64,000 bases of DNA from Candidatus Latescibacterota bacterium. GTDB taxonomy: Bacteria > Latescibacterota > UBA2968 > UBA8231. Below the pieces are notes generated by a model. The model had not been told where the DNA came from. It worked only from the letters and a program-made list of their open reading frames with translations, and made no database searches. Within the stretch, counting starts at the first letter, position 1. Each line of letters starts with the position of its first letter. Location of the stretch: assembly GCA_965197905.1 (NCBI GenBank), contig CBDAOB010000004.1, positions 128,001 to 192,000 of the forward strand. The letters are read 5' to 3'. Below, in pieces: positions 42,270 to 45,398 of the stretch. Made by a program: the position numbers and the translations under genes.

Positions 42270-42298
42270 TTGACACAAACCTGCTGAATATTTATTAT
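42270..42298 (+). promoter_or_regulatory. Host sigma70 promoter (probable original argC promoter) just left of the IS
   Basis: TTGACA-N17-TATTAT; overlaps ARG-box-like TGAATATTTATT. Confidence 0.55.
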
Positions 42299-42324
42299 AA
42301 TAAATAATTATCGGAACTATCTAC

Positions 42325-42353
42325 TTGACAAAGCAGCCCATAAGTAGTATATT
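42325..42353 (+). promoter_or_regulatory. Inward transposase promoter overlapping IRL
   Basis: TTGACA-N17-TATATT. Confidence 0.6.
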
Positions 42354-42385
42354 AACAAGTAGAAAGATTGAAAAAGGGGCTGAAA

Positions 42386-43315
42386 ATGACATTCGAAGAA
42401 ATCGCACAATTCTCGGAAGATGAAGCCCGAAGGCATCTGGAAAATCTGCGTTGGCTGAACGGCATTACATGCCCTCACTGTGAATCCAAGGACGCTACAC
42501 GCATGGAGGGCGAGGCACATCGCAAGGGTGCCATACAGTGCAACGACTGCCGCCAGCAGTTCACGGTTACCGTGGGCACCGTGATGGAGTCCACAAGGGT
42601 TCCGCTGCGCAAATGGATCATGGCCTTTCATCTCTTGTGCTCCAGTAAGAAGGGGTATAGCGCCCTTCAGTTGAAACGCGATCTCGGCTTGGGATCTTAC
42701 AAGACGGCTTGGTTTATGGCTCACAGAATCCGCTATGCGATGAATAACGGCCCCCTAAGTGAGAAGCTCAAGGGAACAGTTGAGATGGACGAAACCTATG
42801 TAGGCGGCAAACCCCGCAACAGAAGTCCGAAAAACAAGCGTGGGCGCGGCACGAAAAAGAAGCCGGTAGTAGCATTGGTAGAGCGTGATGGCGAGGTCCG
42901 ATCTAGGGCCGTGGAGAACGTCAAGGGAAAGACGTTGAACGCGGAGATCCTACAGCACGTGGACAAGCGGTCTACGCTTGTCACCGACGAACTACCGCAT
43001 TACACGCACGCTGGACGATTCGTGGGCGATCATCGCGTGATCAGACATAACGGAAGAGAGTACGTGAGACGAGAAGGGTTACTGTTGGTGACGACAAACA
43101 CGGTCGAATCGTATTTCGCCCTGATTAAGCGTGGCCACTACGGCGTGTATCACTCCATGAGCAGCAAGCACATAGGGCGGTATGTGGATGAATTTGCATT
43201 CCGATGGAACCACAGGAAGGCGAATGATTCAGAGCGGCGCGATACCGCGATTCAACAAGGGGAGGGGAAACGATTGATGTACTCAGAAAACCATTGTACT
43301 CAAGAAAATGTTTAA
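42386..43315 (+). CDS. IS1595-family DDE transposase
   Basis: Zn ribbon CPHC...CNDC, HTH (SALQLKRDLG.GSYKTAW), VEMDETYVGG, LVTDE, TNTVESYF, Y.DEFAFRWN. Confidence 0.95.
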   Translation: MTFEEIAQFSEDEARRHLENLRWLNGITCPHCESKDATRMEGEAHRKGAIQCNDCRQQFTVTVGTVMESTRVPLRKWIMAFHLLCSSKKGYSALQLKRDLGLGSYKTAWFMAHRIRYAMNNGPLSEKLKGTVEMDETYVGGKPRNRSPKNKRGRGTKKKPVVALVERDGEVRSRAVENVKGKTLNAEILQHVDKRSTLVTDELPHYTHAGRFVGDHRVIRHNGREYVRREGLLLVTTNTVESYFALIKRGHYGVYHSMSSKHIGRYVDEFAFRWNHRKANDSERRDTAIQQGEGKRLMYSENHCTQENV

Positions 43316-43331
43316 CGTTGTTGACATTTGG

Positions 43332-43360
43332 TTGACATTTGCTAGCGGATTTATTACTCT
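43332..43360 (+). promoter_or_regulatory. Sigma70-like promoter pointing antisense into the tRNA-like pair
   Basis: TTGACA-N17-TACTCT; the -35 lies in a tandem GTTGACATTTG repeat (43320-43341). Confidence 0.5.
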
Positions 43361-43386
43361 AACAAATAACCTTTGTTGTACAAAGT

Positions 43387-43467
43387 TGGTAGCCCCACCG
43401 GGACTCGAACCCGGAACCTGCGCCGTTCGATGGGTCCAGCTGCTCTATCCAGTTGAGCTACAGGGCC
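43387..43467 (-). tRNA. tRNA-like gene, 81 nt, Arg-like body, non-canonical anticodon arm (anticodon undetermined)
   Basis: GGCCCTG/TGGGGCT acceptor + A-CCA, D arm GCTC-AACTGGATA-GAGC, T arm CCGGG-TTCGAGT-CCCGG; anticodon/variable region 4 nt longer than canonical. Confidence 0.75.
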
Positions 43468-43491
43468 ACCAATTTTTCTGACAAAGGACTA

Positions 43492-43563
43492 TGGTGGAGG
43501 CAGGGGGAATTGAACCCCCCGGTACAGGTGTCTAAGTCCACTACCGGCTACCTAGCTGCCCCC
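43492..43563 (-). ncRNA. 72-nt tmRNA tRNA-like-domain (TLD)-like / Ala-tRNA-mimic RNA
   Basis: GGGGGCA/TGCCTCC acceptor with G3·U70, A-CCA end, T arm GGGGG-TTCAATT-CCCCC, no D stem, central CGGTA..GTG/CAC..TACCG hairpin. Confidence 0.7.
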
Positions 43564-44060
43564 ACGCTGGATGTGAAAATCCCGTTACCAGATTCCCCGG
43601 TAACGGGATTTTCCTCTTTGTGCAAAGATTCTCGCCATTTCATAGTCAGTCGGTATGCTGACTTACCGTTGCGCTTACCGGCTCGCTCAATGATTTTGCG
43701 CTTCCCAAATGATTTTAAGACCGTGTGAGCTGATCCAAGGAGATTGTCAGATTCGCTATGCAACTTCCCTTGCTCCTTGAGCTTCTGCAATTCGTCTCTT
43801 AATTCTGAGGGGTTCCAAGCCCGAGTGTGGTTATTGCGAAAAATGCTGGTAATCGCTTCGACGGGACCGACCGCTTCCACTCTTAGCGCCACCTCACTGT
43901 TGCCGTTACCCGAAATCGGGAACTGCGGTCCCTTGAGTAAGGTTTTAACGGCAGCCAGTTGCTCTTGTACGGCATTAAGCTCACGTTGGATCTCGTTGAC
44001 CTTATTGAGCAAGAATTTGCGTCGATCAGCTAAGGCGATTTCAAATTGCCTGTCGTCCAT
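43548..44060 (-). CDS. IS passenger protein: N-terminal coiled coil + probable winged-helix domain
   Basis: ATG 44060 after AAGGAGA; heptad-like LLNKVNEIQRELNAVQEQLAAV; helix-helix-helix-wing-like pattern ending IIERAGKRNGKSAYRL. Confidence 0.65.
   Translation of the reverse strand: MDDRQFEIALADRRKFLLNKVNEIQRELNAVQEQLAAVKTLLKGPQFPISGNGNSEVALRVEAVGPVEAITSIFRNNHTRAWNPSELRDELQKLKEQGKLHSESDNLLGSAHTVLKSFGKRKIIERAGKRNGKSAYRLTMKWRESLHKEENPVTGESGNGIFTSSVGAAR
43575..43613. terminator. Perfect 15-bp inverted repeat, possible bidirectional terminator or processing stem
   Basis: GAAAATCCCGTTACC-N9-GGTAACGGGATTTTC. Confidence 0.55.
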
Positions 44061-44138
44061 TGTTGATCTCCTTGGTTGGAGAATTACTGGCCCCAAGCTT
44101 AAAATAGCTTACGCACCAAGTTAGCACAAGTTGAAATT

Positions 44139-44339
44139 ATGGGTAAGAATAAAAGCACCAAATGCACCAAGAATGATAATCAAGAATTAGAACAAGCGCA
44201 AGGTGGGTTATCCTTGCACCCCTTGAACCCTGACGAAGCCCTCGCGGCGTTTCTGGACACGCCACCACCAGAGGATGAGCAGGGTAATAAAAACCGAAAA
44301 CGAGGTGCTGATAAAAAGAAGGATACGAGGGAAGAGTAG
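44139..44339 (+). CDS. Small IS passenger protein (66 aa)
   Basis: ORF inside the IS, divergent from the wHTH ORF; LSLHPLNPDEALAAFLDTPP core, basic tail. Confidence 0.5.
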   Translation: MGKNKSTKCTKNDNQELEQAQGGLSLHPLNPDEALAAFLDTPPPEDEQGNKNRKRGADKKKDTREE

Positions 44340-44426
44340 GTCTAAGTGCTAATAAATACGTGGCTTTGCGATAGCTTTCTTAAGTAGATAGTTCCGATAA
44401 TTATTACTCTCATTGGCACGGAATTC

Positions 44427-45398
44427 ATGGCCCAACCCAAGGTATTCATAGACGGTCAAGAGGGAACAACCGGTCTGCGCATTCGCGAGATGCTGAATGA
44501 TCGCCCGGATCTGGAACTGCTCACGATCCCGCCGCAAGATCGCAAGGATTCCACCGCCAGAGAGGACTATCTGAACGCCGCGGACCTAGCCATCCTCTGC
44601 TTGCCGGATGCGGCGGCGGCCGAGGCGGTCAACCTGGTGCAGAACCCGCAAACGAGACTCCTGGATACCAGCACGGTCCGGAGGGTTGATCCGAACTGGA
44701 TCTATGGCCTGCCTGAACTGGGTGTCTCGCAGCGGCAGTCGATCGCCGGGTCGATGCGGGTAGCCAATCCCGGTTGTTATCCCACCGGGTTCATACTGGC
44801 CGTGCGCCCACTGATCGAAGCCGGGGTGTTGAACCCAGCGGCGCGGCTCACCGTAAACGCGGTATCCGGGTACTCGGGTGGCGGAAAAGCACTCATCGAG
44901 GAATATAAATCGCTACCATCACCCGAGCGGGCGAACGACACAGCGCGGCCACTGGCGATCTACGGCCTCGATAGCCGGCACAAACATCTCTCTGAAATGC
45001 AGCTATTCAGCTGTCTGGAACACCCCCCGTTGTTCGTGCCCGCAGTCCTACCCGCCTATTGTGGCATGATGGTCAGCACGCCGGTTCCGATATCGGCCTT
45101 TACCAATGCTACCACCCCGAAGGAAATTTTCGACATCTGGAACGACCACTACGCCGATTCCCCCATGGTCGAGCTCCGCAACCCGCGAGACCCCACCGCG
45201 TTGCGCGACGGTCGATTTCTGGATCTGGAAGGGATCTCCGATCGAAACTCGATTCAACTGATGGTGTTCGGGGACGACGAGATCGGCCTGGTGCTTTTTG
45301 CCAGGCTCGACAATCTCGGCAAGGGAGCGGCTGGAAACGCCGTTCAATGTCTGAACCTCATGTTGGGATTTGCGGAAACCGCCGGACTCTCCGATTGA
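44427..45398 (+). CDS. argC: N-acetyl-gamma-glutamyl-phosphate reductase (type 2)
   Basis: KVFIDGQEGTTGL, ANPGCYPTG, SGYSGGGK, DNLGKGAAGNAVQ. Confidence 0.95.
   Translation: MAQPKVFIDGQEGTTGLRIREMLNDRPDLELLTIPPQDRKDSTAREDYLNAADLAILCLPDAAAAEAVNLVQNPQTRLLDTSTVRRVDPNWIYGLPELGVSQRQSIAGSMRVANPGCYPTGFILAVRPLIEAGVLNPAARLTVNAVSGYSGGGKALIEEYKSLPSPERANDTARPLAIYGLDSRHKHLSEMQLFSCLEHPPLFVPAVLPAYCGMMVSTPVPISAFTNATTPKEIFDIWNDHYADSPMVELRNPRDPTALRDGRFLDLEGISDRNSIQLMVFGDDEIGLVLFARLDNLGKGAAGNAVQCLNLMLGFAETAGLSD

Follow-up and report, generated by a model that had tools for sequence, protein, structure and literature searches.

An IS1595-family element of a Latescibacterota genome with a winged-helix gene and two irregular tRNA-like genes: candidate mistranslating tRNAs as transposon cargo

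The window analysed here, a stretch of 64,000 nucleotides (nt) of Candidatus Latescibacterota contig CBDAOB010000004.1, contains a 2,085-bp IS1595-family transposon (42312-44396; one copy in the genome) that carries, antisense to its transposase gene, what would be an operon of a coiled-coil/winged-helix gene, a hairpin and two irregular tRNA-like genes, here termed RNA1 and RNA2. The GC content of the element is 50%, as compared with 58.5% for the window. The element is bounded by 23-bp inverted repeats (IRs; 42312-42334 on the + strand and 44374-44396 on the − strand), which are identical at 21 of 23 positions, and by an 8-bp target duplication, ATAATTAT, at 42304-42311 and 44397-44404. Both boundaries and the duplication are proven by an empty site in a genome of the same genus (G002), in which flanks 86-88% identical to those in the window join over one copy of the 8-mer and the element is absent. 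The open frame at 42368-43315 (+ strand) encodes a 315-aa transposase with an N-terminal zinc ribbon and matches to DDE_Tnp_IS1595 (E 1e-40) and NF033547 (E 2e-59), and is an intact IS1595 member. An earlier note on this DNA had described intact ends enclosing an IS1595 transposase, and the IR comparison, the empty site and the domain matches bear this out. The zinc-ribbon DDE transposase, IRs within the 23-25-bp range, the 8-bp duplication and the passenger genes all agree with membership of the family; the subgroup label ISNwi1-like, together with its IR motif, is an assumption of ours for this element. Ahead of the transposase gene there is an inward-facing promoter-like site (42325-42353; 11 of 12 positions match), and its TTGACA lies within the left IR. 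A plasmid search returned only transposases below 47% identity.

The cargo gene (43548-44060, − strand) encodes a protein of 170 aa. Its AlphaFold model (pLDDT 85) has a 40-residue N-terminal helix followed by a winged helix, with structure matches of the Fur/PadR/MukF type, as the earlier note had anticipated in reading a coiled-coil/winged-helix ORF opposite the transposase. No Pfam, NCBIfam or PADLOC family matched the protein. Between the cargo gene and the RNA genes lies a feature missing from the earlier note, a strong 15-bp hairpin with A-run and U-run flanks (43575-43613; folding z −7.3), which is directly upstream of RNA1 and would be terminator- or attenuator-like. The last ~25 cargo codons extend through this hairpin into RNA1; because most distant cargo homologues align only to profile position ~147, we regard this tail as a local extension. 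The cargo gene was earlier said to be followed directly by two CCA-terminated RNAs 24 nt apart. The CCA ends and the 24-nt gap stand, but the cargo gene does not merely precede RNA1, which it overlaps by 16 nt.

RNA1 (43492-43563, − strand) is a compact tRNA-like RNA of 72 nt with an encoded CCA. Its acceptor stem is of the Ala type (G2-C71, G3·U70, G4-C69, A73), and it has a 3-bp D hairpin with an AGGU loop, a long bulged anticodon arm and no variable loop. The anticodon loop is ACUUAGA, in which the register of its class, Y33-NNN-N37-A38, with C33 in this copy, probably places the ochre-reading anticodon UUA. This copy can be drawn with an 8/4 branch, but pairing in the class is 7/5, and position 8 belongs to the D hairpin. 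Rfam offers RNA1 only the tRNA and tmRNA families, and the best match was tmRNA, at 34.1 bits (cut-off 47; E 2.5e-11). The acceptor and T loop are similar to the ends of the host tmRNA. RNA1 lacks the D-loop GGUUCGAC and the GGAC linker, both of which are kept in the host tmRNA and which we take to be the SmpB site, and at 72 nt and below the Rfam cut-off it has no mRNA-like tag domain. Free-energy folding does not set the two RNAs apart (z −1.08 for RNA1 and −0.27 for RNA2).

An AT-rich spacer of 24 nt (43468-43491, − strand) separates RNA1 from RNA2 (43387-43467, − strand), an 81-nt gene with an encoded CCA and an Arg-type body. RNA2 matches the Rfam tRNA model at 40.9 bits (cut-off 29), carries the Arg-type marks A20, A73, G2-C71 and C3-G70, aligns with tRNA-Arg bodies and is ~76% identical to the host tRNA-Arg(UCU) over 63 nt. 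It has four extra nt in the anticodon arm, with an 11-nt loop in the window copy, and lacks the canonical 5-bp stem and 7-nt loop with C35. ARAGORN called it tRNA-Met(CAT), and the annotation makes it a fourth such gene in a genome that already has three CAT-anticodon tRNAs; we rejected this call as an artefact of the enlarged loop. A 77-nt form, missing 43435-43438, has canonical length, a 4/5 stem, the loop CGA and the Arg triplet UCG shifted to positions 33-35, and the window copy looks like a derived allele disabled by a 4-nt insertion.

This shorter form comes from two sponge metatranscriptome runs of one study, which contain the cassette (weak evidence). One run yielded a 212-nt contig over 43384-43599 with four gap letters and no substitution. 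The other gave a contig over 43439-43599 and nine loose letters that equal 43426-43434, so that 43435-43438 are missing, and the gap in the first contig would be the same four nt. The contigs carry no strand, end or level information, and DNA carry-over is possible. They cover the cassette and neither the transposase nor the cargo ORF, which is not evidence that those ORFs are silent. A DNA run contained, at the same site, a related element with a transposase 83% alike, in which the hairpin region differs at 3 positions in 74 nt and the RNA part is replaced by unlike sequence.

A transposase scan of GTDB genomes returned at least 590 stretches, of which 557 were confirmed and the best 80 retained. 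Of these 80 plus the present element, 68 had both ends, and the 8-bp duplication was perfect in 56 of the 68, this element among them, in agreement with the family habit given in the earlier note; removal of the duplicate L077 left 67 elements. ARAGORN at default settings made 10 calls in 9 of the 67 interiors (114 kb, this element counted), whereas 312 kb of flank gave 3 and neither 67 kb of transposase sequence nor 1.14 Mb of shuffled interior gave any. Thresholds of 85 and below were noisy, and 90 gave 18 flank and 21 shuffle calls. With lowered thresholds and our own RNA model, 13 of the 67 elements were RNA-bearing, and most elements of the group are therefore without RNAs. The RNA-bearing bounded elements span 2-3.5 kb and occur across Acidobacteriota, Planctomycetota, Chloroflexota, Verrucomicrobiota and Omnitrophota; a quick transposase tree splits the elements into a branch of 27, of which 12 bear RNAs, and a branch of 40 with a single RNA bearer, and implies 9 changes.

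We found 12 long-arm RNAs within related elements or next to them, and in every one the acceptor (7/7) and the T stem (5/5) are fully paired. G1-C72 and A73 occur in eleven, as in the host tRNA-Leu; these eleven are without the Pro determinant G72 (the host tRNA-Pro has C1-G72). None of the eleven has a Leu anticodon: nine carry NGG (Pro), one CCU and one a CGA loop that is interrupted. The remaining RNA is of the Ser type (G73) and carries UAG. At L030:6894-7012 (− strand), an IS1595 element contains a Leu-type tRNA-like gene whose anticodon arm holds a large insertion; to position 73 this gene measures 116 nt.

When 18 ORFs that precede such RNAs, chosen by eye, were combined into a profile, it matched the cargo family across the winged helix (96.6%). 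With a profile of 14 of these ORFs, which include none from the 67 elements, 6 of the 13 RNA-bearing elements matched at E <0.02 versus 2 of the 54 others. Three homologues of the cargo protein itself were found at 65% identity; their alignment matched no locus in the metagenome or viral sets, and a DNA search of 61 genomes found only ordinary tRNAs and no close relative of the element. Among cargo homologues in four genomes of the same family, one (L107) has an RNA1-like gene nearby, and the cargo family is not exclusive to RNA-bearing elements. Eleven related IS1595 elements or loci (L006, L011, L013, L021, L030, L035, L040, L042, L045, L060 and L070) carry a ~250-aa gene with a gene judged by eye to be PIN-like, a two-gene cargo seen mostly in elements without tRNA-like genes.

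RNA1 is a member of a large family of compact tRNA-like RNAs of 66-70 nt. The class combines an acceptor of the Ala type, a D hairpin of 2-6 bp whose loop is (N)GGU, no linker, a bulged anticodon arm of 9-11 bp, no variable loop and a normal T arm. A metagenome pattern scan, in which the pattern fixes G1-G4 and U70-A73, gave at least 121 hits, 113 of them unique and 110 once three tmRNA-end-like rows were removed; this and the later counts from pattern scans refer to the matches listed. Length to position 73 was 66-70 nt among the 110, with 63 at 68 nt, and 19 encode the CCA. The D stem is short, with three pairs in 37 of the 110 against 15 expected. By our own heuristic, which favours U33 and A38, the 110 carry 33 different anticodons, 26 of them stop-reading (UUA 13, CUA 12, UCA 1) and others reading Gly (15), Arg (9), Gln (9), Thr (7) and Ala (5) codons; U33 and A38 stand at one or the other of two fixed offsets in 24 and 33 of the 63 listed 68-nt members. 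The acceptor was 7/7 paired in all 121 listed matches, of which the pattern fixed only part. In an alignment of 34 members, fitted to the model and including its training rows, 88% of cells pair versus 63% when shuffled and 49-62% in slid controls, and 15 of 20 pairs are altered on both sides, which bears on the compensatory changes asked for in the earlier note; the anticodon-arm helix is the weakest (67.5% paired). The proposal of a mobile RNA module made there is thus supported by tRNA-like genes in related elements far above background, by covariation of the RNA1 fold and, weakly, by the RNA libraries.

The tie of the class to transposons was seen from several directions. The RNA model, built on 11 members and run on 151 genomes of the phylum with 33 candidates scored per genome, placed ordinary tRNAs at ~48 bits or below and gave five non-self matches above 50 bits, of which three adjoin IS1595/IS1-type transposases, with no transposase in the 3.5 kb around the other two. 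One of the five, L435 (G059), found via the RNA model alone, repeats the gene order of our element, with a winged-helix gene, hairpin, RNA and convergent IS1595 transposase. At L436:3415-3658 (G147:C1), a tandem array of an Arg body with GCC, an RNA1-class gene with CCA and an RNA2 homologue repeats the RNA1-RNA2 order, with no IS1595/IS1-type transposase within 3.5 kb. In a pattern-free search anchored on transposase or cargo, look-alikes turned up at L107 and in 4 of the 33 bounded elements from the viral set, and all five (L113, L121, L140, L153, L107) have G3·U70 and A73. Of the metagenome loci listed with at least 600 nt downstream, a transposase lies within 800 nt at 22 of 62; the class is, therefore, not confined to insertion sequences. 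An upstream hairpin (z < −2) accompanies 49 of 111 listed RNA1-class matches versus 10 of 104 control stretches. Stop-reading anticodons were seen in 11 of the 19 listed RNA1-class genes beside IS1-type transposases and in 1 of the 8 beside IS1595 transposases.

A pattern scan of viral contigs returned at least 120 stretches, with short flanks only at 40 of the 120 loci listed. The 111 unique ones fall, by our own rules, into 48 tmRNA-end-like or long, 43 compact with Ala anticodons and 20 compact with other anticodons. IS1595/IS1-type transposases lie near 7 of the 20 compact non-Ala RNAs listed and near none of the 43 or the 48. A similar compact scaffold with the cognate anticodons UGC or GGC lies in viral tRNA arrays at 21 of 25 listed loci, with another tRNA-Ala visible at 5 of the 21, suggesting that such a scaffold may decode. 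Loci L166, L172, L196, L238 and L243 have a compact tRNA-Ala (mostly UGC) with the D arm nearly absent, in phage tRNA arrays, and most such arrays listed show no other tRNA-Ala within 3 kb. Loci L165, L174, L186, L211, L237 and L270 have RNAs of ~80 nt made of tmRNA ends only, which keep GGUUUCGAC and GGAC and form a sizeable class like that of phage DS6A. A TTAGA-anchored viral pattern gave mainly tmRNA 3′ ends and few RNA1-class rows.

One reading of these data, absent from the earlier note and better supported than those that it offered, is that the RNAs are charged tRNAs with a mismatched anticodon, that is, missense or nonsense suppressors. Host RNase P and 3′ trimming would release the RNAs, and RNA1 would be charged by the host alanyl-tRNA synthetase (AlaRS), given that RNA1 has all four of the acceptor determinants for bacterial Ala tRNAs and that AlaRS ignores the anticodon. 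Ala-RNA1(UUA) would then read through UAA and UAG stops, and its relatives would decode sense codons with the wrong amino acid, whether Ala, Leu or Arg; RNA2 would be an Arg-type companion, with the copy here apparently disabled. Most of the RNA bodies used belong to synthetases that are blind to the anticodon (Ala, Leu, Ser): for bacterial tRNAs, Table 1 of PMC9976931 assigns no determinant to the anticodon for Ala or Leu, and for Ser it assigns none to the triplet. The variable anticodon in an anticodon-like loop, the anticodon-blind bodies and the one quarter of stop-reading triplets argue for decoding with the wrong amino acid over mimicry of shape alone. In PMC5389517, allo-tRNAs with mismatched anticodons put in Ser or Ala and killed E. 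coli. Read-through of the transposase in cis was tried as a purpose and rejected, as there is no in-frame stop in any of 28 transposase alignments near RNA1-class genes and in this element read-through would add only two residues; because the transposase needs no read-through, any effect would fall on the host or an invader.

Several findings weigh against mistranslation. RNA1 has C33, its loop register is ambiguous between UUA and UAG (Leu), and its lowest-energy fold has an anticodon loop of 8 nt; among the 110 listed members, whose anticodon calls lean on the heuristic given above, position 37 is C in 67. In tRNAs, position 37 is usually a purine. The anticodon arms of RNA2 and two homologues (G147, L073) are broken, the winged-helix cargo is missing from 7 of the 13 RNA-bearing elements, and the presence of the cassette in metatranscriptomes would mean that a host tolerates it if it is expressed. 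In PMC5389517, moreover, a transposon-linked allo-tRNA(UAU) was inactive in translation and tRNA1 was charged yet not decoding. On balance, we lean slightly towards ribosome-active mistranslation by the element's RNAs.

The element also offers candidates for control of such RNAs. The winged-helix protein is probably a repressor of the operon. Three GCACCAA repeats and one GCACAA repeat lie between the divergent cargo and small ORFs (44113-44170), and are a candidate operator; the motif was spotted by eye, and repeats of this type number 18 in the whole window, with 0.04 expected per 140 nt. The protein would repress the operon and the hairpin would damp read-through into the RNAs, so that mistranslation would stay low until control is lost, and the element would carry an RNA-only proteome poison or stress modulator. 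That its purpose is addiction or abortive phage defence is our preferred but tentative suggestion. Equally speculative is the wider picture in which IS1595/IS1-type elements spread a protein-free toxin, namely compact tRNAs charged blind to the anticodon that would corrupt translation (Ala at stops or at Gly, Thr or Gln codons, Leu at Pro codons) once winged-helix and hairpin control breaks down, for addiction or abortive anti-phage action. The small ORF (66 aa; 44139-44339, + strand), a frequent passenger at the right end of such elements, matched no Pfam or NCBIfam family and belongs to a cluster of 9 ORFs among the 67 elements. Outside the element, a promoter-like site, TTGACA-17-TATTAT (42270-42298), lies directly before it, and the element separates this site by 2.1 kb from an argC-like gene (region 44427-45398), which may now rely on read-out via a site at the element's right end (44077-44105).

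The RNAs might instead be decoys, charged or uncharged, that never decode and that absorb toxins which attack tRNAs, anticodon nucleases among them, or keep AlaRS, EF-Tu or RelA occupied. The diversification of anticodons resembles an arms race, C37 and the distorted arms suit a non-decoder, the tRNA1 of PMC5389517 is charged but unused, and some RNA-bearing elements carry NYN (E 1e-14), HicB (8e-7), HicA-like (0.006) or PIN-like (by eye) genes. However, PIN/NYN-type cargo also occurs in elements without RNAs, and no nuclease is encoded here, where the cargo protein has a modelled winged-helix fold and matches nothing in Pfam, NCBIfam or PADLOC. The 26 stop-reading anticodons among the 110 listed match no host tRNA, and because there is no host tRNA for them to mimic, decoding fits better; we consider decoys unlikely. 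With no adjacent nuclease or other protein toxin in the element, the RNA antitoxin proposed in the earlier note found little support, and the same holds for its RNA partner of the transposase. It had also named processing signals for the cargo mRNA. On such a reading, RNase P or RNase E would be recruited by the tRNA fold to cut the cargo transcript, which would destabilise this message or free an RNA antisense to the transposase. RNA1 does overlap the cargo stop codon, and cleavage at its 5′ end would yield a cargo mRNA without a stop; cassette and transposase converge in this element as well as in L435, L456 and L531, and the RNA contigs span the cassette and not the ORFs. But the overlap is not conserved: elsewhere the preceding ORF stops 8 to ~200 nt short of the RNA. 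At 17 of 27 listed loci with an IS1-type transposase, the RNA is upstream of it on the same strand, and processing would require neither G3·U70 nor a 7-nt anticodon loop. We therefore regard this as improbable.

An antagonist of tmRNA or SmpB would fit the best Rfam match of RNA1 and its resemblance to the host tmRNA ends, and a coding-region-less tmRNA of phage DS6A inhibits the host tmRNA (PMC11915505). The SmpB decoy of the earlier note has little support and was ruled out on the missing GGUUCGAC and GGAC of RNA1, which a separate viral class of ~80 nt keeps; none of the 48 listed tmRNA-end-like or long viral matches lies near these transposases, and RNA1-class members retain an anticodon-like loop. 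Antagonism of this kind is thus very improbable. We give a similarly low probability to the case that the earlier note had set against its own reading, in which the RNAs are functionless fragments of host tRNA or ssrA that were captured and are decaying. The likeness of RNA2 to the host tRNA-Arg(UCU) together with its distorted arm, the faster divergence of the RNA region than of the transposase in the related element, and the patchy distribution of RNA cargo on the tree could all be read as decay. The empty site has no tRNA, however, the acceptors are fully paired, the fold covaries and the RNA1-RNA2 order recurs in G147, so that for RNA1 decay is largely refuted.

If the RNAs decode as mistranslating tRNAs, jumping elements could make their hosts misread the genetic code, and insertion sequences would carry deliberate mistranslation across many phyla. 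The RNA1 class would then be a natural bacterial tRNA scaffold that has neither D-linker nor variable loop and accepts any anticodon; as an Ala-charged RNA of 68 nt whose anticodon can be exchanged, it would also lend itself to use as a natural scaffold for suppressors. Bounded elements of 2-3.5 kb with an empty site and a candidate repressor and operator would make the role of allo-tRNAs and irregular polycistrons, open since 2017, testable by one small construct. Annotation is affected as well, in that RNA2 is miscalled tRNA-Met, Leu-type bodies are miscalled tRNA-Pro, or the genes are missed.

The element resembles the transporter insertion sequences of the IS1595 family, for which MTnSag1 and tISCpe8 serve as comparison for passenger genes (PMC5704250), in its DDE transposase, IRs of ~23-25 bp, 8-bp duplication and passenger genes, and differs in that its passengers include irregular tRNA genes. 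We found no published report of such passengers in IS1595 elements, and no paper on an IS1595/IS1 link or on the RNA1 class, in a literature search mostly outside subscription journals. The earlier note knew of nothing similar. That needs amending, as Mukai et al. (2017; PMC5389517) described polycistrons of irregular tRNAs in the vicinity of toxin-antitoxin genes, as well as a single allo-tRNA that overlaps a transposon-related ORF; IS1595 is unnamed in the parts searched. In the portions of the main text and supplement searched, gene-context figures S5-S6 excepted, there is no tie to IS1595/IS1 or to a winged-helix gene, and six motif look-ups in the supplement gave no RNA1-class row among the matches listed.

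The likeness to the allo-tRNAs and irregular polycistrons (PMC5389517; PMC7609411) extends to non-cognate or stop anticodons, an NGGU D tetraloop without linker, G3·U70 in some, tandem arrays in metatranscriptomes and a position near toxin-antitoxin or transposon genes, and a Leu-body UUA tRNA much like the tRNA2 of PMC5389517 adjoins the RNA1-class member L452. Allo-tRNAs have an 8/4 or 9/3 branch and a long variable arm, whereas the RNA1 class, at ~68 nt, has a 7/5 branch and no such arm. The tRNA-ProX/ProRSx system of Streptomyces (PMC11415595) is likewise a case of natural bacterial dual-identity tRNAs that mistranslate, but its tRNAs have Pro bodies and come with a synthetase gene of their own. 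In the present case the bodies are of the Ala, Leu, Ser or Arg type, the carrier is an insertion sequence, and no dedicated synthetase is encoded among the ORFs of the element. The DS6A RNA (PMC11915505) is also a short Ala-acceptor RNA like tmRNA ends on a mobile element, and RNA1 differs from it in lacking the tmRNA D-loop and linker motifs and in having an anticodon-like loop. The element, whose RNA class and gene arrangement we have not found described, is one of a known kind that carries a variant of the known irregular tRNAs.

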